A stretch of 24,000 nt of DNA, taken from the NCBI GenBank assembly GCA_048941015.1, contig JBHLNZ010000021.1, positions 8,263 to 32,262 of the forward strand. The letters are read 5' to 3'. Every line of letters starts with the position of its first letter. The stretch's first letter is position 1. The notes beneath the pieces are model-generated. The model had not been told where the DNA came from and searched no databases. It saw only the letters and a program-made list of their open reading frames with translations. Both the position numbers and the translations under genes were made by a program. This document shows, in pieces, positions 1 through 18,621 of the stretch. The DNA is from Promethearchaeota archaeon (lineage in GTDB: Archaea > Asgardarchaeota > Lokiarchaeia > Sigyniarchaeales > SOKP01).

Positions 1-561
1 CCAAATATTTCGTTAATTGTTATGATCCTTGATACGTTTTACTTTTCCGAATTTTTAACAATAGAAAAAAGTTATGGATTAAATGCTACTGTCTTTGATT
101 TTTACTTTGAAGTTTTTATTGTTGCAAATAGTAGCGAAAATTCTGGTGAGATAGATCTTTCTTATAATGATCATTGGTATGCCGTCTTTATCAATATCGA
201 TGATAATATGAATACATCTCAAGTAGAATTTAGAGTAAATTTTGATGTGTATGAGGAAAAATATGTTTACGTGAATCCTATATCAATCATTTACTTGATT
301 TATGGAGTGGGTGTTTCATTAGTTATCATAGCTTTGGTTATTAGGGCTATTAGAAAGAGAAAAATATTAAACAAACCTATTCCAGTTGTTCCGTATCCTT
401 ACATGACTAAAGAGGAGACTATTCCAAAAAATTCTTATCTTAAACAAATAGAATTACAGAAAGTAGAGAGTGAACTGCCATTAGCTAAGTATTGTCCATA
501 TTGTGGAGAATATCTTGATCGAGACTCTATTTTCTGCCATCAATGTGGAAATAAAGTATAA
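1..561 (+). CDS. Membrane protein with C-terminal zinc-ribbon (5' partial, open at the window edge)
   Basis: The frame is open from nt 1 (PNISLIV precedes the listed M at 22). There is one strong TM helix (ISIIYLIYGVGVSLVIIALVI) followed by basic RAIRKRK. The C-terminus has CPYCG-x12-CHQCG, a 4-Cys zinc ribbon. The N-terminal part carries N-x-S/T sequons, consistent with an extracellular domain. Confidence 0.5.
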   Translation, partial: PNISLIVMILDTFYFSEFLTIEKSYGLNATVFDFYFEVFIVANSSENSGEIDLSYNDHWYAVFINIDDNMNTSQVEFRVNFDVYEEKYVYVNPISIIYLIYGVGVSLVIIALVIRAIRKRKILNKPIPVVPYPYMTKEETIPKNSYLKQIELQKVESELPLAKYCPYCGEYLDRDSIFCHQCGNKV

Positions 562-620: not shown

Positions 621-836
621 GTGGATTTAGACATTGATTATGAGAGAAATGGGGCGGAATTCGACGTAGATGCAGATATCGACGTTGATCTCGATGCAGG
701 GGTAGATGTAGATGATAAGTTTGATATGAGTCTAGAAGCTGAAATTGAAATAGATGTCGATACAGATATAAATATCGATTCTAAAGTCGGGAAGGATTCG
801 CAAGAAATTGTTATTGCCACTACCCCTGCAACTTAA
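621..836 (+). CDS. Small, highly acidic Asp-rich protein (71 aa, GTG start), hypothetical
   Basis: The ORF begins at GTG 621, right after an in-frame TGA at 612. It has an alternating Asp-hydrophobic pattern (DVDADIDVDLDAGVDVDD ... EIEIDVDTDINID). It lies on the same strand as, and 50 nt upstream of, the NfeD-like gene. The antisense ORF 638-820 is the Ser/Thr/Ile mirror image of this repeat. Confidence 0.4.
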   Translation: MDLDIDYERNGAEFDVDADIDVDLDAGVDVDDKFDMSLEAEIEIDVDTDINIDSKVGKDSQEIVIATTPAT

Positions 837-886: not shown

Positions 887-1762
887 ATGGATATATATGA
901 TATATTTTTTAGTATATGTTTAGGATTATTTATAGGCGGAATTATTATGTCGATTATTTCGCTTATTCTTAGTGAAATGTCAACTCATGATCTTCAAGAT
1001 GCAGATCATATTGATCATTTTGACCATATCGATCACGTTGATCATATAGACCAGTTCGACCATATTGACCATGTGGATCATATAGACCAGTTCGACCATA
1101 TAGACCATGTAGATCATATTGACCATGTGGATCATATAGACCAGTTCGACCATATAGACCATGTAGATCACATTGACCATATGGATCACATAGACCAGTT
1201 TGATCATGTAGATCATGTAGACCACATTAACCATGTGGATCATTTTGATCATACTGATAATATCGATAATTTGGATAATTCTGACTATTCGGATCATTTA
1301 GATCATTATAGTGATACTACTCCTGCACCTTTTATGTTATTATTATCGTCATTTTTACTAATTTTTGGGATAACTGGCATTATTTTGTATTATTCAGTTT
1401 TTGGTGTAGCTAAATTTATTATTATTTTTGCAACTCCAATAATATCTTACGGTAGTACTAAATTAATATCTTATGTATGGAGAAAAATAGCAAAATCCAA
1501 ATATTACAATATCTCTGCAACATTGAATTTAATTGGGCGTGATGCGGAGGTTGTTTTAAAGGTAGATGAGATAGGAGGAGTAATAAAGATTCGCTCTGAA
1601 ACTCCAATGAAGTTCGAAAAATTGCATGCAAAACCCCTTAAAGAATCAAGTTCTTTTGAGAAGGGAACTAAAGTTTATATTTGTGATATTAAAGATGGTT
1701 ATTTATTAGTTGATAGTGATCAAAAACTAATTAAACATAGGACGATATATCGCAACAGATAA
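887..1762 (+). CDS. NfeD-like membrane protein with an inserted His/Asp tripeptide-repeat loop
   Basis: GAGGA lies 6 nt upstream of the ATG. The protein has an N-terminal TM helix, a repeat loop at aa 34-143, and two or more TM helices at aa 148-200. The C-terminal soluble segment (LIGRDAEVVLKVDEIGGVIKI...FEKGTKVYICDIKDGYLLV) matches the NfeD C-terminal OB-fold pattern. It sits directly upstream of an SPFH/flotillin gene, the classic NfeD-SPFH operon arrangement. Confidence 0.65.
   Translation: MDIYDIFFSICLGLFIGGIIMSIISLILSEMSTHDLQDADHIDHFDHIDHVDHIDQFDHIDHVDHIDQFDHIDHVDHIDHVDHIDQFDHIDHVDHIDHMDHIDQFDHVDHVDHINHVDHFDHTDNIDNLDNSDYSDHLDHYSDTTPAPFMLLLSSFLLIFGITGIILYYSVFGVAKFIIIFATPIISYGSTKLISYVWRKIAKSKYYNISATLNLIGRDAEVVLKVDEIGGVIKIRSETPMKFEKLHAKPLKESSSFEKGTKVYICDIKDGYLLVDSDQKLIKHRTIYRNR
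986..1315 (+). repeat. In-frame 9-bp (tripeptide) tandem repeat with 36/54-bp higher-order units
   Basis: Asp (once Asn) falls at every third residue from D40 to D139, giving 34 positions (HID/HVD/QFD/HFD/HMD...). The motif gatcatatagaccagttcgaccat recurs at 1040, 1076 and 1130, with a variant at 1184. The 54-bp units 1076-1129 and 1130-1183 differ at only 2 positions. Confidence 0.85.
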
Positions 1763-1868: not shown

Positions 1869-3044
1869 ATGTTATTTCAACAGGTATATGGCTGGTTGGT
1901 AGGCGGAATTATAGCTGGAGTAATCGTATTTTTCTTATTTGTAATTTTTTTAGCTACAAGATATCGAAAATTTAAAACGAATCAATTTGTTATCCATTTA
2001 CGTAATGGTAAGGTAAAAAGTGCTGGACTTGGTGGCAGTATTTGGTTATTGCCATTAATAGATGAATATATTGTAATTCCTACTACAAGTATTCAAACAA
2101 TTTTAGAAGCCCACGAGCAAGTAGTTTCGATGGAATACCAAAATATTTCAATCGTCGGTATGTTGATTTGGAAAGTAATAGATCCTGAGAAAGCTTTTAG
2201 TGCAGTTTCCTGGGTAAATCGAGATGAACATTTCGTTGAAAAAATACTAAAGAATGCAGCAGAAGCAATTATAAGAACAACATGTGCAAATATGCCACTT
2301 GAAAAGATTATTAGAGAACGTCGAGAGATAATTGAACATGTAAGTAAAGAATTGCATGAACTTACTGCTGATTGGGGCTTAATAATTGAATCCATAGAAA
2401 TCCGAGAAGTAAATATATTAGAACCCGATCTGAAAAGGAATATGGAAGCTACTAAACAGGCAATAGAATTTCGAAAGGCCCGTATAGCTAAAGCTGAAGC
2501 AGAAAGGGAATCAAGAATGAGAGAATTAGAAGTTCAAAATGAAGTTGGGACACAGGAACAACTAGTACAAAGAGATATTGAAATACGCAGAAAAGAAAAA
2601 GAAATTGCGATAGCAGATCAAGAGCGAGAACGTAAAAAAATTGAGGCAGACGGAGACCGTCAGAAAAAAGTCATTGAAGCAGAAGCCGATGCAGCTTCTA
2701 TTAAGAAGAAATTAATAGCACAAGCTGAAGGTGAAGCTGAGACTATAAAACAGCAGATGTTAGCGCAAGCTGAGGGTTTTCAAAAACAAGTAGAAGCGAT
2801 GTCATCAGCGGATCAGAGATTTTTAGCTGTTCAGTTGACTAATATCTTACCCGAAATATTTAAAAATATTAATCCAGAGAAGATGTTTATTATGGGAACC
2901 GGCGATGAAGCTTTTAGTGCTTTATCAAGAGCAATACTCCCATTCTTACAGCTTGTGCCAGAGTATTCCGATAAAATAAAAAGATTTCTAGGAACTAGCG
3001 ATTTAACTAATATCAAAGAATTAGTAAGTAATATTTCAAAATAA
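1869..3044 (+). CDS. Flotillin-like SPFH/Band-7 domain protein
   Basis: GGAGGT lies 12 nt upstream of the ATG. The protein has an N-terminal TM anchor, then an SPFH core (IIESIEIREVNI...), then a long Ala/Glu-rich coiled coil (AKAEAERE..., IEAEADAASIKKKLIAQAEGEAETIKQQMLAQAEGF) typical of flotillins. Confidence 0.85.
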   Translation: MLFQQVYGWLVGGIIAGVIVFFLFVIFLATRYRKFKTNQFVIHLRNGKVKSAGLGGSIWLLPLIDEYIVIPTTSIQTILEAHEQVVSMEYQNISIVGMLIWKVIDPEKAFSAVSWVNRDEHFVEKILKNAAEAIIRTTCANMPLEKIIRERREIIEHVSKELHELTADWGLIIESIEIREVNILEPDLKRNMEATKQAIEFRKARIAKAEAERESRMRELEVQNEVGTQEQLVQRDIEIRRKEKEIAIADQERERKKIEADGDRQKKVIEAEADAASIKKKLIAQAEGEAETIKQQMLAQAEGFQKQVEAMSSADQRFLAVQLTNILPEIFKNINPEKMFIMGTGDEAFSALSRAILPFLQLVPEYSDKIKRFLGTSDLTNIKELVSNISK

Positions 3045-3114: not shown

Positions 3115-4056
3115 ATGAACTTGGTTGAAAAATTTGAAGAGTTATTAATTAAAGGGAATATGGAATTTCAATGGAAGATAAAGCAAGAAACAGAAGATAT
3201 GAAATTAATTTCAAAAAAAATTCCAAAATATCCGGTGTTAATACTAACTTGTATGGACCCTCGAATTGATGTTCATCGCATCTTTCAGTTAAAGCCAGGT
3301 GATGTTTTTGTGTTGAGAAATGCAGGAAATGGCTTCACAGACGACGTGTTAAGATCTATTTTAATTGCAATTCATGAATATAATGTTAGGAATATCATTA
3401 TTTTAGGACATATTGATTGTGGAATGACTAAAATAAATCTAATTCAATTAGGCCAGAAATTATCAAAACCAGCCTTAGCAAGAATTCTTCGTGATGGTAC
3501 AAATATTCAAATTGAGTTGCAGAAGTATTTTAAAACTTTTATCGATGAGATACAGAATATAAAAATTCAGGTTGAAAGAATAAGAAAAGCGCCTGAAATT
3601 CCTTCAGGTATATTGGTAACTGGAATGCTATATGATGTGAATTCACATTGGGTATTTGAATATGAGAAATTTAGTAAATATACTTTGATTGAGAATTTTA
3701 TGCGAAACTATAAAGAATTTGTAGAAGCAAAGAAGTATGATTTTATTGATTATATTGAGTCGATTGAAGGGGAAATTGTTGGAAAGAAAGAACTTCAGAA
3801 TTATAAAGATAGAATGCCTGAAAGTATAGAAATTGAAAAGGACCAAATTAAGAATGAATTAATTAATAAAGCATCAGAGACAATTGAAATATCAGAAATA
3901 TTGCCTGAGGAACAAAAATCCTTTAAAGAATTTGATGAATTAGTTGAAATAGTTCAAAAGCAACTTACTTCTATTCCAAAAATCCAAATTCCAAAAATAA
4001 TTATCCCTAAAGTTAAAGTCTATATACCAGAAATTTATAAGAAAAAAGAAGATTAA
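3115..4056 (+). CDS. Beta-class carbonic anhydrase with a ~125-aa low-complexity C-terminal extension
   Basis: The zinc-ligand motifs of beta-CA are present: C-M-D-P-R (CxDxR), GDVFVLRNAGN, and GHIDCGM (HxxC). After about aa 190 the sequence becomes Glu/Lys/Ile-rich and ends in PKIQIPKIIIPKVKVYIPEIYKKKED. Confidence 0.75.
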   Translation: MNLVEKFEELLIKGNMEFQWKIKQETEDMKLISKKIPKYPVLILTCMDPRIDVHRIFQLKPGDVFVLRNAGNGFTDDVLRSILIAIHEYNVRNIIILGHIDCGMTKINLIQLGQKLSKPALARILRDGTNIQIELQKYFKTFIDEIQNIKIQVERIRKAPEIPSGILVTGMLYDVNSHWVFEYEKFSKYTLIENFMRNYKEFVEAKKYDFIDYIESIEGEIVGKKELQNYKDRMPESIEIEKDQIKNELINKASETIEISEILPEEQKSFKEFDELVEIVQKQLTSIPKIQIPKIIIPKVKVYIPEIYKKKED

Positions 4057-11779: not shown

Positions 11780-12643
11780 TTGAGAATATATATGGGTACT
11801 CAAGTTTTTCTTATAAATCCAGATGGAACCACAACTGAAATAAAATCTGAAGGGTCAATTAAAGATGTTTTAAAAACTGAAGATTGCTATGTTCTAGTTT
11901 CTGATGATATTAGGAAGGTATATCTATGGAAAGGATTGGAGAGCAATGTGAGATCAAAGTTTATTGGTGCCAAAAGGAGCCAAGAAATACGTGGACAAGT
12001 CGGTATGCATTATGCAGTTGTTCCCCAGGATGAAGGGGATGAAGAAGCTGAATTTTTAAAATTAATAGGCGGGAAGACAGAAGGAGGTATAGCTAAAGAA
12101 ATAAAAGCAGAACAAGCGTCTGTTGCTAAACCTGCCCCATCAGTTCACCCACTGAGGGAAAAGGATACTTTTGGAGCTCCAAAGCCAGCCCAAGGTATGA
12201 ATATTGCTGGAAGTAGAGATCGTATTGCTCAAAATACAGGCCCCTTATATAGAGGACAAGAATCTATGTCTATGCTCATGGAGGACGAGGTTAAAATAAA
12301 TTTTGAACAAATAATGCAAAAATTGGAAGAAATTAAAATGCCTGATGGATTTGAAAGGGAATTAATAATTATTGGAAATCATGCTTATTCAGTTGTAGAG
12401 AGAGTACAGACCTTCTTAGGAGAGAAACAAGTAACTAAAGAAATATCGAAGGTAGGAGCTGTCCCTGAGGGAATCTTTTTTGCTGAAGATTATTCTCCAA
12501 GAATTTTATCAGAAAATGGTAAAATTCTAGCTATAGAATTCTTAAAACGGACAACTGGACCAAAAGATACTACAGTTGAATTCAAATCTAAAAAAGAAAT
12601 TTTAAAAGATCAAATAAAAACTCAGCTTGAAGGTAAAAAATAG
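11780..12643 (+). CDS. Gelsolin/cofilin-fold domain protein with an uncharacterised C-terminal domain (1DGelX-like architecture); probable start at ATG 11792
   Basis: The N-terminal ~100 aa follow the gelsolin-repeat pattern: DCYVLVSDD-IRKVYLWKGLESNVRSKFIGAKRSQEIRGQ...VVPQDEGDEEAEFLKLIGG (compare gelsolin DxYIL / IYxWxG / xxE...A / EG-E-x-F). A ~60-aa linker of disordered appearance and a ~125-aa domain without a recognised motif follow. Confidence 0.7.
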   Translation: MRIYMGTQVFLINPDGTTTEIKSEGSIKDVLKTEDCYVLVSDDIRKVYLWKGLESNVRSKFIGAKRSQEIRGQVGMHYAVVPQDEGDEEAEFLKLIGGKTEGGIAKEIKAEQASVAKPAPSVHPLREKDTFGAPKPAQGMNIAGSRDRIAQNTGPLYRGQESMSMLMEDEVKINFEQIMQKLEEIKMPDGFERELIIIGNHAYSVVERVQTFLGEKQVTKEISKVGAVPEGIFFAEDYSPRILSENGKILAIEFLKRTTGPKDTTVEFKSKKEILKDQIKTQLEGKK

Positions 12644-12860: not shown

Positions 12861-13250
12861 ATGAGCGATTTAACTCCAGAAGAAGCACATTCATTATCAA
12901 AATTTCTTGGGAATATTACTGAACATACTGAACTGGAGGCTCTTGCCTTAGTGACACGTGATGGTTTACGTCTTGCTTTTTCTTGCATTCCAGATTATGA
13001 AGTCGATCCGGATCTATTTTCAAGTCTAAGTGCTGTAGTAATGCAAAGCGGACAGGATGCTATTGATTCTCTGGGTTATACTCATTTATTGGAAGTAGTT
13101 TTAAGAGGCGCAGATGCTTTTATTATTTTGAGTGCTGCTGGGAGATTCTTCTTAATGGGTGCAAGTAGAAAAATTGAAGATTTAGGTAAAATTGTAACGG
13201 TTTTTAGATATTATGCTGGAGAAATCGGGAAACGCTACCCTCTAACATAA
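12861..13250 (+). CDS. Roadblock/LC7 (MglB-like) domain protein
   Basis: A 129-aa single domain. LEALALVTRDGLRLA, an acidic loop, LLEVVLRGADAFIILSAAGRFFLMG and LGKIV follow the Roadblock/LC7 longin-like pattern. Confidence 0.75.
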   Translation: MSDLTPEEAHSLSKFLGNITEHTELEALALVTRDGLRLAFSCIPDYEVDPDLFSSLSAVVMQSGQDAIDSLGYTHLLEVVLRGADAFIILSAAGRFFLMGASRKIEDLGKIVTVFRYYAGEIGKRYPLT

Positions 13251-13364: not shown

Positions 13365-15557
13365 ATGAGCGAAATCAAAATTTTTGTTGATGTAAATGAA
13401 GGTACCTCAAATAAAGTTGTTATTTGCCAAGAGAACGCAAACAAGTTAGGACTTTCCGAAGGTGCTTCAGTTGAAGTTGAAAATCCTGATAATAATAAAA
13501 AAGCCACTGCAACTATAGAAATTTCGAATATGGTTTTAGATTTTGCGGGACAGGTTTCAAAGAATGTTGTTGACGAATTGGAATTTGATGGTATTGAATT
13601 AATTATTCGTCCTGTTAGTAGTACTGGTCTAGCAGCTCCTAAATTACAGATACCGAAAGTTCCAACACCCAGACCGATTCCTACAACCCAACCAGGAATT
13701 TCCCAACAATCATCATTAACTCCATTACCCACACCTCCGCCTCAACCTATGCCAACTAGGCCAACACCTCAACCTAAACCGGCACCTACACCACAAGCAA
13801 CACCTATACCTGCTCATCAACCAGTTCCAAAACCTATTCCTCAACCTATGCCTATGCCTACTCCAACACCTCCACCACAGTATACTCCAGCACCTCCAGC
13901 ACCTACACCAGCACCTATCCCTCGAGTTGCTCCAATACCACCACCCCAACCAACGTATGATCAAGCTCCTACACAAGACTATAGTGTATCTTCTGTTCCT
14001 GCAGAACCATACCCTAATAAAATAGATGTCTATATGTTGCAAACTCAAAAGAATGGTATTGTTCTTAAACCCGTTGTTGATGATAATCTTGAAGGAGGAA
14101 GAGTACAAGTGAGTTCTTCCGTTATTCAACAATTAGGACTTGCTCCAGGATTACTAATTGCCTGGGAAGATCCTTTAACTCGTTCTATAGGCTCTGCTAG
14201 AATAGATCAAGCAATGGTTAATCCAGGTGAGATAAGAATGAGTAGAGATACAAAAGAAGATACAAATATCCAAGCTCAACAAATTGTAATTTATTCGACT
14301 GAACCTCCAATTCATAAAGCATCAGAATTAATGCTTGAAGTTCAATCTCAACCAAATTTAATGGGTTATTGTTTAGTTGGGCCTCGTACAATGTATACAC
14401 TATCTATTAAACAAGATGATGTTCTTGCATTTGAGGATGAACTTACAGGGGCTATAGGCGCTGGTAAAGTGGAAATTTCGGATGCCGTTCCACCTAATAG
14501 TATTGTTATCGATAGTGAGATATTAGAAGCATCTGGTATAGGAAGCTTTGAAGTTAAAGTTTCTAAAAATCTCCGTCCTATTATTCCATTACAAAATATT
14601 GCTCTTGGTATTTCTCCAATTTCAGGAGAAAATATGTGGGAAATCATAAGTACTGCTCGACAAAATGTGGATTCGTTAAAAGGATGGTTATCAAATTATA
14701 TCATCTTTAAAGGAATCAAGTTGAGATGGAATGCGGTAAACATAGCATGTTCAATAATCAGAACGGTTCCAGACTTGACTGGGGATGTCTTTGCCCAAAT
14801 TACACCAAATACCGCAATAAATTTAACGCCCACCGGATTAATACCCTTTAATGCAATTCTTATTATTGATATTAGTAGGAGCATGATGGCAAGAGATGTT
14901 TATGTGACTAATATTGCTCCTGCAATAGAAGGAATAAAAGCAGCTATGGAATCTCGAGAAATTCAAGAATTTCTAAAACATTTCAAAGCTGGAATCAATA
15001 TCCCAAGAAGAATTTCAGCAGCTTTTGCAGCGGTTTTGTTTTTAAGTGAAAAAGTTGGGAGAGGTTTTGGTGAAAAGGTCTCAATTATAAGATTTGCAGA
15101 TGAAGCACAAGTATTACCTTTTGGTGGTGGTTTCTATATGGATTCTGCTAGTGGAAAGAAAGGAATTCTTGAAGATGCAGCACGTATGATCGTTGATCGA
15201 ATAGGAAATGCTTATGGACAAGCTACCAATATGGGTCAAGCTATGATTAAAGCTCATCAAGTTTTAGCTGAGTTTGAAAAGATGAGTCCGGATCAGCCAA
15301 CAATGATCGTACTCTTAACGGATGGGATCCCTACGGATGGAGATGATTTCTTCAAATCAGTTAAAGGTTTTGCTGAGAATCCGAATGTGGTCATTTATAT
15401 AGTTGGACTAGGAAATCCTGATGATGAATTAATGATTAGAGCAGCATCGTTATGTGGTGGAGAATACTTTAAACCGGAGGATGCAGGTGAACTATTGATA
15501 TGGTATTCTAAACGAGCAAGAGATCTTACAGTTAAGTTGAAGGCGCATAAAGGTTAA
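13365..15557 (+). CDS. Multidomain protein: Cdc48-N-like barrel, Pro-rich tract, two more Cdc48-N-like barrels (+ beta-clam), C-terminal vWA domain with intact MIDAS
   Basis: vWA lies at aa ~496-715: ILIIDISRSMM (DxSxS), QATNMG (Thr) and IVLLTDGIPTDG (Asp). There are three segments of the pattern xxVxVxxxxxxxLGLxxGxxVxx...G.A.I (aa 5-85, 233-312, 323-402). They are followed by LKGWLSNYIIFKGIKLRW...IIRTVPDLTGDVFAQITPNTAINL, which resembles the Cdc48 domain-2 beta-clam. Confidence 0.8.
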   Translation: MSEIKIFVDVNEGTSNKVVICQENANKLGLSEGASVEVENPDNNKKATATIEISNMVLDFAGQVSKNVVDELEFDGIELIIRPVSSTGLAAPKLQIPKVPTPRPIPTTQPGISQQSSLTPLPTPPPQPMPTRPTPQPKPAPTPQATPIPAHQPVPKPIPQPMPMPTPTPPPQYTPAPPAPTPAPIPRVAPIPPPQPTYDQAPTQDYSVSSVPAEPYPNKIDVYMLQTQKNGIVLKPVVDDNLEGGRVQVSSSVIQQLGLAPGLLIAWEDPLTRSIGSARIDQAMVNPGEIRMSRDTKEDTNIQAQQIVIYSTEPPIHKASELMLEVQSQPNLMGYCLVGPRTMYTLSIKQDDVLAFEDELTGAIGAGKVEISDAVPPNSIVIDSEILEASGIGSFEVKVSKNLRPIIPLQNIALGISPISGENMWEIISTARQNVDSLKGWLSNYIIFKGIKLRWNAVNIACSIIRTVPDLTGDVFAQITPNTAINLTPTGLIPFNAILIIDISRSMMARDVYVTNIAPAIEGIKAAMESREIQEFLKHFKAGINIPRRISAAFAAVLFLSEKVGRGFGEKVSIIRFADEAQVLPFGGGFYMDSASGKKGILEDAARMIVDRIGNAYGQATNMGQAMIKAHQVLAEFEKMSPDQPTMIVLLTDGIPTDGDDFFKSVKGFAENPNVVIYIVGLGNPDDELMIRAASLCGGEYFKPEDAGELLIWYSKRARDLTVKLKAHKG
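13635..14015 (+). other. Proline-rich low-complexity tract (aa ~91-217) inside the vWA protein
   Basis: The stretch reads PKVPTPRPIPTTQP...PTPPPQPMPTRPTPQPKPAPTPQATPIPAHQPVPKPIPQPMPMPTPTPPPQYTPAPPAPTPAPIPRVAPIPPPQPTY. It forms a local GC-rich island (CCA/CCT codons) that generates the spurious Trp/Arg-rich antisense ORFs 13343-13732 and 13725-14132. Confidence 0.85.
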
Positions 15558-17466: not shown

Positions 17467-18621
17467 ATGAGTTTCCCCAATAAAGATCAGTTACGTCCTT
17501 TAATTCTTAATATCGGAAGTAATACTTTCAAAATGGGTTGGGCAGGAGATGATTTTCCCGATATTATCGCTCCAAGCATATATGTTGATGTTTCTGATTA
17601 CCTATATACTTCAGATGTAATTGACGGCTTAGAAGAGATTTATATTAATGAGGAAACTCAAAACCATTTGGTTGGACATCAAGCATTAAAATATCAAGAT
17701 ATCTTAAAAATTCACGAATTTAAAAAAGAAAAGAATTATAATTTGCTTACTAAATTTTTTTATTATTATTATAACCAATTAAAAATATCTTTAGAATTAC
17801 AATATAGGCAGCCACTAATTATACTTTTACCTTTTTTTAGTTCAGAATTAGAAAAAACTAAATTACAAGAAATTTTTTTCGAATCCTGTAATTTTCCAGC
17901 TATTTTATTTTTAGATGAAGCTCAAGCTATATTATCTACATTAGACAAGTCTAGTGGAGTGATTATAAATATTGGAGAATCAAATACGTATATCTCTACA
18001 ATATTTCATGGTTTTACGAATATAATGGCCCGAGATCTTTTTCCTGTAGCTGGGAAGGAATTAACAAATTATCTATTAAATTTAATTTTAGCAAGGAAAA
18101 GTTTAGTAAAAAATGTACATGTTGATAAAACTATAGCAAAAGAAGTTAAAGAAAAGTTATCTTTATGTCTTATAGATCCAGATACTGAAAAAAAAAGAGT
18201 TAAAGAAGGTTTAACTAAATATGATCGTACTATAGATCTACCAGATGGTTCTAGTTTAAAAATAAATTTAGAACGTTTTTTATTGGCAGAACCCCTATTT
18301 AATCCAAAACTTATACATATCGATTATATTGGATTAGCGGAAGCAGTATCTAAAGTGGTAAAATCCTGGGAGAGAGAAAACTGGGAAGATTTAGTGTCTA
18401 ATGTTATTTTAGCAGGTGGAGGAAGTTTAATATCTGGTCTTGATCGAAGATTAGAATTGGAATTAAAAAATTTCTTTTCAGAAAGATTAAAGCCAAAAAT
18501 AAAAGTAGTTGCTGCTTCAGGTCGAGAGAATATGGGTTGGATTGGAGCATCAATTCTTTATTCGAAGGGGCAATTACAAAAAGGTTGGGTTAAAAATCCT
18601 AATTTAGAAAATACAATTTAG
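17467..18621 (+). CDS. Actin-related protein (divergent member of the actin/Arp clade)
   Basis: The protein is colinear with eukaryotic actin throughout. [16 protein letters not shown] matches [42 protein letters not shown] matches [46 protein letters not shown] matches [21 protein letters not shown], and [10 protein letters not shown] matches VWIGGSILAS. Confidence 0.9.
   Translation: [384 protein letters not shown]

Follow-up and report, generated by a model that had tools for sequence, protein, structure and literature searches.

Flotillins and other SPFH scaffolds of prokaryotes are accompanied by NfeD proteins, partners that are universal yet functionally obscure, and the locus described here raises the question of what such a partner may add to its scaffold. 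The locus lies in the window, a 24,000-nt stretch analysed as a whole (contig JBHLNZ010000021.1 of assembly GCA_048941015.1, positions 8,263 to 32,262) from a Promethearchaeota archaeon. An open reading frame (ORF) at 887-1762 of the window, directly ahead of a flotillin gene, appears to encode an NfeD protein of the YqiJ type in which a loop between membrane helices has grown into a long array of His- and Asp-containing tripeptides. The best overall explanation is that the product is a YqiJ-type NfeD protein whose expanded loop is a putative cation or proton binder, a reading to which we assign a probability of roughly 50%. The YqiJ branch of the family carries a fast-evolving, acidic and often His-rich repeat loop, which exceeds 100 residues in Asgard archaea, and this loop offers a handle on what NfeD partners contribute, be it cation or proton binding or a polyanionic brush. 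The elements of the gene and its product are as follows.

887-1762, forward strand: gene for a predicted short-form, YqiJ-type NfeD-like membrane protein of 291 aa (from the ORF, homologues, AlphaFold2 and Foldseek)
893-1003, forward strand: first predicted transmembrane (TM) helix, TM1, residues 3-39 with a hydrophobic core at about 6-29, YDIFFSICLGLFIGG; the most conserved N-terminal element (AlphaFold2, predicted local distance difference test score (pLDDT) >90)
998-1303, forward strand: array of 34 (H/Q/N)-hydrophobic-D tripeptides, residues 38-139, within a 113-aa loop free of Lys and Arg
1061-1170, forward strand: most recent part of the array, two exact direct copies of 56 nt at 1061-1116 and 1115-1170
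1322-1501, forward strand: predicted helical hairpin of TM2 (residues 146-170) and TM3 (173-205), with the conserved motifs TTPAPFMLL before it and RKIAKSK after it (AlphaFold2)
1541-1714, forward strand: predicted five-stranded, OB-like beta-barrel of NfeD type, residues 219-276 (AlphaFold2, pLDDT about 90 or higher; Foldseek)

The identification of the product as a short-form NfeD of the YqiJ/DUF1449 type and a flotillin partner is well supported by predicted structure, synteny and a profile link to YqiJ. In the AlphaFold2 model, built on 66 homologues, three hydrophobic helices (residues 3-39, 146-170, and 173-205) precede the barrel and form the N-terminal membrane anchor that characterizes short-form NfeD proteins, and the predicted barrel resembles the solved NfeD C-terminal domains. 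Among the 66 sequences, G13, L14, F15, G17, and G18 of TM1 and P146, P148, and W198 of the TM2-TM3 region are invariant. A Foldseek search of the PDB with the model returned the soluble NfeD domain 3cp0 as the top match (E 8.8e-4, probability 1.00, TM-score on the target 0.77, root-mean-square deviation 2.3), followed by YuaF of Bacillus subtilis (2k14) and YbbJ of Escherichia coli (8z5g_AA); later matches had E values of 0.6 or more. The flotillin gene starts 107 nt 3' of the NfeD-like gene on the same strand, which is the SPFH neighborhood typical of NfeD genes. Short-form NfeD proteins of the YqiJ/DUF1449 type are partners of YqiK/FloT-type flotillins (Hinderhofer et al., PMC2636767).

Direct sequence comparisons count against this identification. 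The product scored below threshold with all three relevant Pfam models, reaching 15.2 bits with NfeD (PF01957, cut-off 29.1) and 22.6 bits with YqiJ_N (PF21001, cut-off 23.0; E 1.3e-4, residues 119-173, which cover the loop end and TM2) and giving no match to YqiJ_OB (PF07290). Among 19 relatives, 6 reached the NfeD model at E <0.1 (best 1.5e-4) and 2 matched YqiJ_OB (best E 0.045). Alignment of the Asgard C-terminal region to E. coli YqiJ alone with hhalign gave a probability of only 4%. A phmmer search of the PDB with the window protein found no meaningful match, and a profile search of the PDB ranked 3cp0 first with an E value of 0.37. Because these direct comparisons were weak, the link to YqiJ needed a large profile search. 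A profile of 143 conserved C-terminal positions, searched against 1.84 billion representative proteins, yielded 123 relatives, among them P0198, P0206, P0210, P0221, P0237, and P0238 with E values of 5e-6 (P0198) to 8e-4. Five of these six, including bacterial proteins, pass both YqiJ_N and YqiJ_OB, P0221 passes YqiJ_N only, and P0198 is named “YqiJ family protein” at NCBI. The 137 homologues found by database search all come from Asgard metagenome-assembled genomes (MAGs; Promethearchaeota/Loki, Thor, Hel, Hermod, Hod, and Odin) and are named “NfeD family protein” or “DUF1449 family protein” at NCBI, while no database record was found for the exact window protein. The initial annotation, made from the sequence alone, had called the product NfeD-like and proposed a hidden Markov model search as a check; the name is upheld by the top three structural matches and the adjoining Band_7 gene, whereas the Pfam NfeD model itself does not confirm it.

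Known SPFH-NfeD pairs share the architecture of the window protein to differing extents. In E. coli YqiJ-YqiK, the NfeD-like gene is likewise directly upstream of a flotillin-family (SPFH2) gene, and YqiJ has the same succession of TM1, acidic loop, TM2-TM3, and OB domain together with a flotillin-type partner. At the matching site between TM1 and TM2, YqiJ carries the His/Asp motif LDAHLDHYD, which BLASTP aligns with DADHIDHFD of the window protein. However, the YqiJ loop is about 30 aa long with two H-x-D units, compared to 113 aa (about four times longer) and 34 units in the window protein, and the window differs further in its archaeal host and in a gene cluster that adds a Zn-ribbon protein and a beta-carbonic anhydrase. 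YuaF (NfeD2) of B. subtilis, encoded with FloT, and NfeD of Staphylococcus aureus, encoded with FloA, are likewise short, anchored in the membrane, and equipped with a five-stranded OB-like barrel in the cytoplasm, although no large His/Asp repeat loop is described for them. In characterised NfeD proteins, the OB barrel is the part that engages the SPFH protein, and in S. aureus it binds flotillin (PMC11222466). E. coli YbbJ, the third-best structural match (8z5g), aligns over 138 columns that include TM helices and OB domain, and has been built 1:1 with QmcA into a 26-mer cytoplasmic SPFH cage (PMC13086221; Tan et al. 2024). Unlike the window protein, YbbJ has no repeat loop, and it pairs with a stomatin-like protein instead of a flotillin-like one.

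The loop between TM1 and TM2 of the window protein spans residues 33-145 and contains 36 Asp, 27 His, and no Lys or Arg. Its Asp register runs over residues 40-139 as 25 Asp, one Asn, and 8 further Asp, which amounts to 34 consecutive triplets. The initial annotation had described about 34 consecutive tripeptide repeats in a loop of about 110 aa between the first and the later TM helices, and both figures hold, with the qualification that one triplet ends in Asn. The first triplet position is occupied by His 25 times, and otherwise by Gln (4), Asn (3), Tyr (1), or Asp (1), each of which is one nucleotide step away from the His codons CAT and CAC. The middle position is Ile in 13 triplets, Val in 8, Phe in 6, Leu in 2, Met in 1, Ala in 1, Ser in 2, and Thr in 1, i.e., Ile, Val, Phe, Leu, or Met in 30 of 34, and the third position is Asp in 33 triplets and Asn in one. 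The degenerate triplets NID, NLD, NSD, and YSD cluster at the 3' edge of the array, in line with the usual picture of an array that grows from its center. An antisense ORF wholly inside the repeat (980-1297, reverse strand, 105 aa) was rejected as a non-gene, a by-product of stop-free periodic sequence.

The DNA of the array bears the marks of recent amplification. Two 54-nt units (1076-1129 and 1130-1183) had initially been reported as identical at 52 of 54 positions, which we reproduced exactly, and the longest exact direct repeat in the array is 56 nt long at an offset of 54 nt, equal to six tripeptides. Tandem Repeats Finder describes the array as 4.5 copies of a 54-nt period with 84% matches and a score of 313. 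In control coding DNA, taken from the adjacent C-terminal region of the same genes in relatives, the longest exact repeat is only about 8 nt, which shows that the repetition in the array is far beyond chance. The array also differs from its surroundings in base composition, with a GC content of 36% in 998-1303 versus 28% elsewhere in the ORF, and in its Asp codons, which are GAC in 15 and GAT in 19 cases within the repeat versus 14 and 104 in five other genes of the window (a GAC share of 44% versus 12%). The simplest account of the raised GAC and GC is probably the amplification of a founder unit that carried GAC.

The same process is visible in the relatives, where the longest exact direct repeat in the loop DNA has a median of 35 nt versus 8 nt in control DNA. 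The length of the repeat unit is lineage-specific (24, 36, 42, 54, 90 nt, and others) and always a multiple of 3. Even the closest relatives use a different higher-order unit, as loci L004 and L008 contain about six and about four copies, respectively, of the 15-aa unit DHFDHADHIDHVDHV. Such differences among close relatives indicate that the arrays were rebuilt repeatedly rather than inherited unit by unit. Expansion or contraction can also be seen between nearly identical proteins: P0012 (244 aa) and P0061 (220 aa) differ solely by a 24-aa repeat block, and P0067, P0075, and P0078 differ from one another by repeat indels of 2 and 6 aa. The recent expansion proposed in the initial annotation is therefore borne out by the 56-nt exact duplicate and the lineage-differing units, and its suggestion of copy-number variability is supported by the indels in relatives, part of which may be assembly collapse. 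No same-species sequence in which to count the repeats was found in two metagenome scans, as an exact 36-mer was unmatched and the closest relative was 73% identical. The array is an expansion of a short acidic His/Asp loop motif by in-frame tandem duplication of 9-nt-based units, the latest duplication being that of a 54-nt unit. Selection has preserved the composition of the array, namely an Asp in each third place, a preceding His, and the absence of Lys and Arg, but neither its length nor its exact sequence.

Repeats of this kind are prone to misassembly, and the array length in the window could in part reflect short-read collapse or expansion. Across 70 related loci, 11 of the 13 scaffold gaps of 100 N sit inside the loop repeat (in L012, L017, L024, L031, L033, L042, L047, L050, L054, L060, and L072). 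This concentration of gaps shows that short-read assemblies are unreliable in the loop, so that some of the apparent length variation, including the indels between strains, could likewise come from collapse. Nevertheless, the array in the window is in frame and flanked by the conserved TM1 and TTPAP motifs, arrays are found in more than 70 independent assemblies, and the length in the window is within their range of 58-140 aa. An assembly artefact is thus extremely unlikely; the existence of the array is secure and only the exact unit count is in doubt, although array copy numbers taken from short-read MAGs are in general not to be trusted.

The Asgard homologues have two types of loop, both of which vary in length. 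The H-type consists of (H-phi-D)n repeats, where phi is a hydrophobic residue, sometimes broken by ADLG or GDFG, whereas the D-type consists of His-free dipeptide repeats, (phi-D)n, such as DVDIDADVDVD. In a survey of 70 species-representative genome loci, the 26 complete H-type loops are 58-140 aa long, with period-3 acidic runs that reach at most 30 units (median 15.5). The 30 complete D-type loops are 59-124 aa long with period-2 runs of up to 49 units, and the median count of Lys plus Arg is zero in both types. In the H-type lineages, His occupies about 75% of position 1 and Asp more than 95% of position 3 across many species. The run in the window, with 25 uninterrupted Asp positions (34 allowing one Asn), is among the longest.

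Beyond these two types, distant relatives (Sigyn-, Njord-, and Lokiarchaeia as well as bacteria) bear other His/Asp repeats at the same loop position, including DHDF/DHDV (period 4), SGHDA (period 5), DHDLSVD, HDHDHDxSG, and TTDVHGDI. At least 9 Asp or Glu residues within some 30-aa window, usually in the N-terminal loop, occur in 71 of 100 full-length relatives, and 34 of these 71 are His-rich as well. The window loop therefore appears, from these sequences, to be an extreme expansion of an ancestral motif that is family-wide in YqiJ/NfeD proteins. A loop-only search of a large protein database gave 12 short, domain-less ORFs that resemble translated microsatellites and no informative context of another kind. 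A literature search found no paper pairing NfeD with “histidine-rich”; acidic or histidine features also go unmentioned in the principal evolutionary study of NfeD/YqiJ. This agrees with the initial statement that such an array is not a described feature of NfeD; however, it is not peculiar to the window protein, as about 70 Asgard species carry it. The acidic/His repeat loop is a widespread, database-annotated yet undescribed trait of YqiJ-type NfeD proteins that is exaggerated in Asgard archaea. One of the surveyed loci (L065, DATKTP010000246.1) is labelled as the bacterium Candidatus Deferrimicrobium, but has an Asgard flotillin/NfeD-like locus of Hel type with more than 16 perfect HID repeats, and the contig is probably mis-binned.

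The side of the membrane on which the loop lies determines what it may encounter. The NfeD OB domain of bacteria is located in the cytoplasm, as is the SPFH QmcA-YbbJ cage (PMC11222466; PMC13086221, citing Tan et al. 2024). If the C-terminus of the window protein is likewise cytoplasmic, three TM helices would place the loop there as well. An independent route leads to the same answer, since long-form homologues have an extra N-terminal TM helix behind a K/R-rich N-terminus (e.g., MIRKSTINRFRNIRWKKK), which places the loop on the side of the C-terminus. The motif RKIAKSK after TM3 has four Lys or Arg residues, and the flotillin has a TM helix followed by RYRKFK. A cytoplasmic loop is the topology that we infer from the positive-inside rule, the only basis for this placement. 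Long acidic loops free of Lys and Arg are also typical of translocated segments, which speaks for the opposite topology, and the membrane potential favors export of acidic segments. In that case, the loop, with 36 acidic residues and no Lys or Arg, would be extracellular and bind Ca2+/Mg2+ or surface-layer components. Such an orientation is very unlikely, because three TM helices would then place the OB domain and RKIAKSK outside the cell, away from the SPFH domain of the flotillin, and because the K/R-rich N-termini of the long forms with four TM helices also speak for a loop in the cytoplasm.

The loop may also lack a stable fold. AlphaFold2 gives residues 40-144 of the window protein a pLDDT of about 42 and the loop of the D-type paralogue one of 33-38, and both loop types are accordingly predicted to be disordered. 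Folding of the D-type (phi-D)n loop into beta-structure was considered, but it is not predicted by AlphaFold2.

On the cytoplasmic side, beside the OB domain and the flotillin assembly, the loop, which is probably intrinsically disordered, could act as a multivalent cation binder in which each H-x-D unit offers an imidazole and a carboxylate. The H-x-D motif is a classic imidazole-plus-carboxylate dyad. Protonation of His near neutral pH would shift the net charge of the loop from about -36 towards about -9, and a flotillin oligomer would cluster many loops into a dense, membrane-attached patch that may bind metals and buffer protons. Metal or proton binding by the loop is plausible, and its most likely role appears to be that of a multivalent cation binder where the flotillin assembly faces the cytoplasm. 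In Shewanella, the DUF1449 protein SO1376 is encoded in one operon with the YqiK-type flotillin SO1377, and iron homeostasis was altered when SO1377 was deleted (PMC1468410). The Ni/Co transporter RcnA has a comparable long, low-complexity, His- and acid-rich cytoplasmic loop between the TM helices of a small membrane protein; this loop, a presumed metal chelator, has grown to 100-123 aa in cable bacteria (PMC11247825). RcnA belongs to an unrelated fold and family (NicO-type transporter), and its loop is His-dominated and lacks a strict three-residue Asp periodicity, so that the likeness would be a functional analogy with no sequence homology. The iron effect of SO1377 and the loop expansion in RcnA lend the cation-binding role indirect support.

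Several observations weigh against a strictly metal-binding role. The main one is that in about half of the orthologous Asgard loci a His-free (phi-D)n loop takes the place of the H-type loop within an otherwise equivalent operon, which indicates that the shared property is a polyanionic array of alternating Asp and hydrophobic residues free of Lys and Arg, and not His. These loops weaken a transition-metal reading that depends strictly on His, and Asp-only loops would favor hard cations (Mg2+, Ca2+) or no specific ligand. An Asp/hydrophobic array would suit hard cations, protons, or the purely physical role of a polyanionic brush no less than transition metals. Moreover, the hydrophobic residue in each unit is needless for chelation and hints at adsorption to the membrane surface or a latent fold.

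The same observations bring in another explanation, under which the loop would serve as a generic, disordered and polyanionic spacer or brush and only length, charge, and flexibility would matter. It might separate NfeD-flotillin protomers, exclude anionic lipids, nucleic acids, or proteins, or serve as an acidic, holdase-like tentacle, in which case His would be an addition peculiar to some lineages and slippage would let the copy number drift. The shared position of H-type and His-free D-type loops in one conserved operon, the loop lengths of 58-140 aa with lineage-specific units, and the predicted disorder of both types are consistent with such a spacer, and FloA-NfeD of S. aureus reportedly stabilizes unfolded proteins (PMC11222466). 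However, the high occupancy of position 1 by His and of position 3 by Asp is more order than a charge-only spacer needs, and the regular hydrophobic residue is left unexplained. A mere spacer is thus possible but rather unlikely, and cation or proton binding by the loop is the reading that we prefer.

The gene neighborhood bears further on the proposed function. The NfeD-like gene is part of a cluster of four genes, in the order of Zn-ribbon membrane protein, NfeD-like protein, flotillin, and beta-carbonic anhydrase, which is common to about 70 Asgard species. Its conservation across Asgard lineages points to a discrete membrane module in those archaea that are most closely related to eukaryotes. 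The other genes of the cluster and a gene relic within it are listed below.

22-561, forward strand: upstream gene of the cluster, for a membrane protein that ends in a zinc ribbon (Pfam Zn_ribbon)
621-836, forward strand: relic of a tandem (phi-D)n paralogue, 71 codons, DLDIDYERNGAEFDVDADIDVDLDAGVDVDD...ATTPAT* (62% identity to L055)
1869-3044, forward strand: flotillin-like SPFH protein of 391 aa, in which RYRKFK comes after the N-terminal TM helix (Pfam Band_7 8e-27, weak Flot)
3115-4056, forward strand: beta-carbonic anhydrase, Pro_CA at residues 41-175, with a charged C-terminal extension of roughly 110 aa (Pfam 5.7e-22)

Among the clearly typed loci, the flotillin gene is directly downstream of the NfeD-like gene in 62 of 64 (D-type 32/32, H-type 30/32), the carbonic anhydrase gene follows the flotillin gene within 3 kb in 51 of 56 (D-type 25/28, H-type 26/28), and the Zn-ribbon gene is upstream in 42 of 50 (D-type 24/25, H-type 18/25). 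A tie of the carbonic anhydrase to His-type loops only was considered and is ruled out by its near-equal frequency in the two types; from these counts, its gene seems to be a constant part of the cluster. The best sequence match of the flotillin in the PDB is human flotillin-1 (1.8e-11), which makes the flotillin of the Asgard module most similar to this human protein among solved structures. In the Hel-type proteins P0024, P0032, P0083, P0060, and P0066, the NfeD-like protein carries a fused zinc ribbon at its C-terminus, and the flotillin gene is upstream. These fusions are a hint that the Zn-ribbon and NfeD-like proteins may act together.

Carboxylates packed into dense Asp arrays show raised pKa values, and His titrates close to neutral pH. 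The synteny with the carbonic anhydrase makes it worth considering that the loop might serve the co-operonic enzyme as a proton-collecting antenna or as a local pH buffer, in which clustered carboxylates, with or without imidazoles, would shuttle protons along the surface of the membrane so that the interconversion of CO2 and HCO3-, or a transporter, is not proton-limited. The carbonic anhydrase accompanies both loop types in the great majority of assessable loci, and surface antennae of acidic and His residues for pairs of carbonic anhydrase and transporter are documented in animals (PMC5986270). Nevertheless, this role is improbable, as its basis is synteny, with no interaction or transporter evident in the cluster, and bacterial YqiJ-YqiK loci such as that of E. 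coli have no adjacent carbonic anhydrase.

A more novel reading would join these elements. Tens of loops gathered by an oligomeric flotillin assembly, with carboxylates and imidazoles on the order of a thousand, might form a membrane-attached, protein-bounded ion-exchange compartment that stores or buffers Zn/Fe and/or protons and serves the co-operonic beta-carbonic anhydrase and zinc-ribbon protein. The estimate presupposes that the assembly has a few tens of subunits, comparable to the 26-mer of QmcA and YbbJ. The idea is a long shot, but if true, such a compartment would be a previously unrecognised function of SPFH-NfeD pairs across Asgard archaea.

The cluster in the window also retains the remnant of a tandem D-type paralogue. 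Over its 71 aa, the ORF at 621-836 shares 62% identity with residues 87-157 of the D-type gene that is intact in L055. It retains the second half of a D-type loop up to TTPA, without TM1 and with nothing after the motif. In L059, intact D-type and H-type genes are found in tandem ahead of the flotillin gene, and L006 has a comparable relic of 88 aa (363-629) upstream of its H-type gene, in which the reading frame is still open. Judging from this frame, a relic such as that of L006 might still be expressed as a small acidic protein. Another ORF of L006 (630-830, 66 aa) was considered as a decayed OB domain and rejected, since it encodes a small tail-anchored protein that L008 and L078 also conserve. 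This protein of 64-71 aa (MYFHGKDIxSKKFxKxIHKK, then a TM helix; L006 630-830, L008 1465-1659, L078 about 1644-1835) is located between the Zn-ribbon and H-type NfeD genes in the closest relatives and is absent from the window.

Elsewhere in the window, there are four eukaryote-signature-type genes on the forward strand (11780-12643, 12861-13250, 13365-15557, and 17467-18621). The window encodes an actin (1.6e-50), a Roadblock/LC7 protein, and a gelsolin-like protein (sub-threshold), which fit an Asgard origin of the sequence, as well as a 730-aa VWA protein with a long Pro-rich low-complexity stretch.

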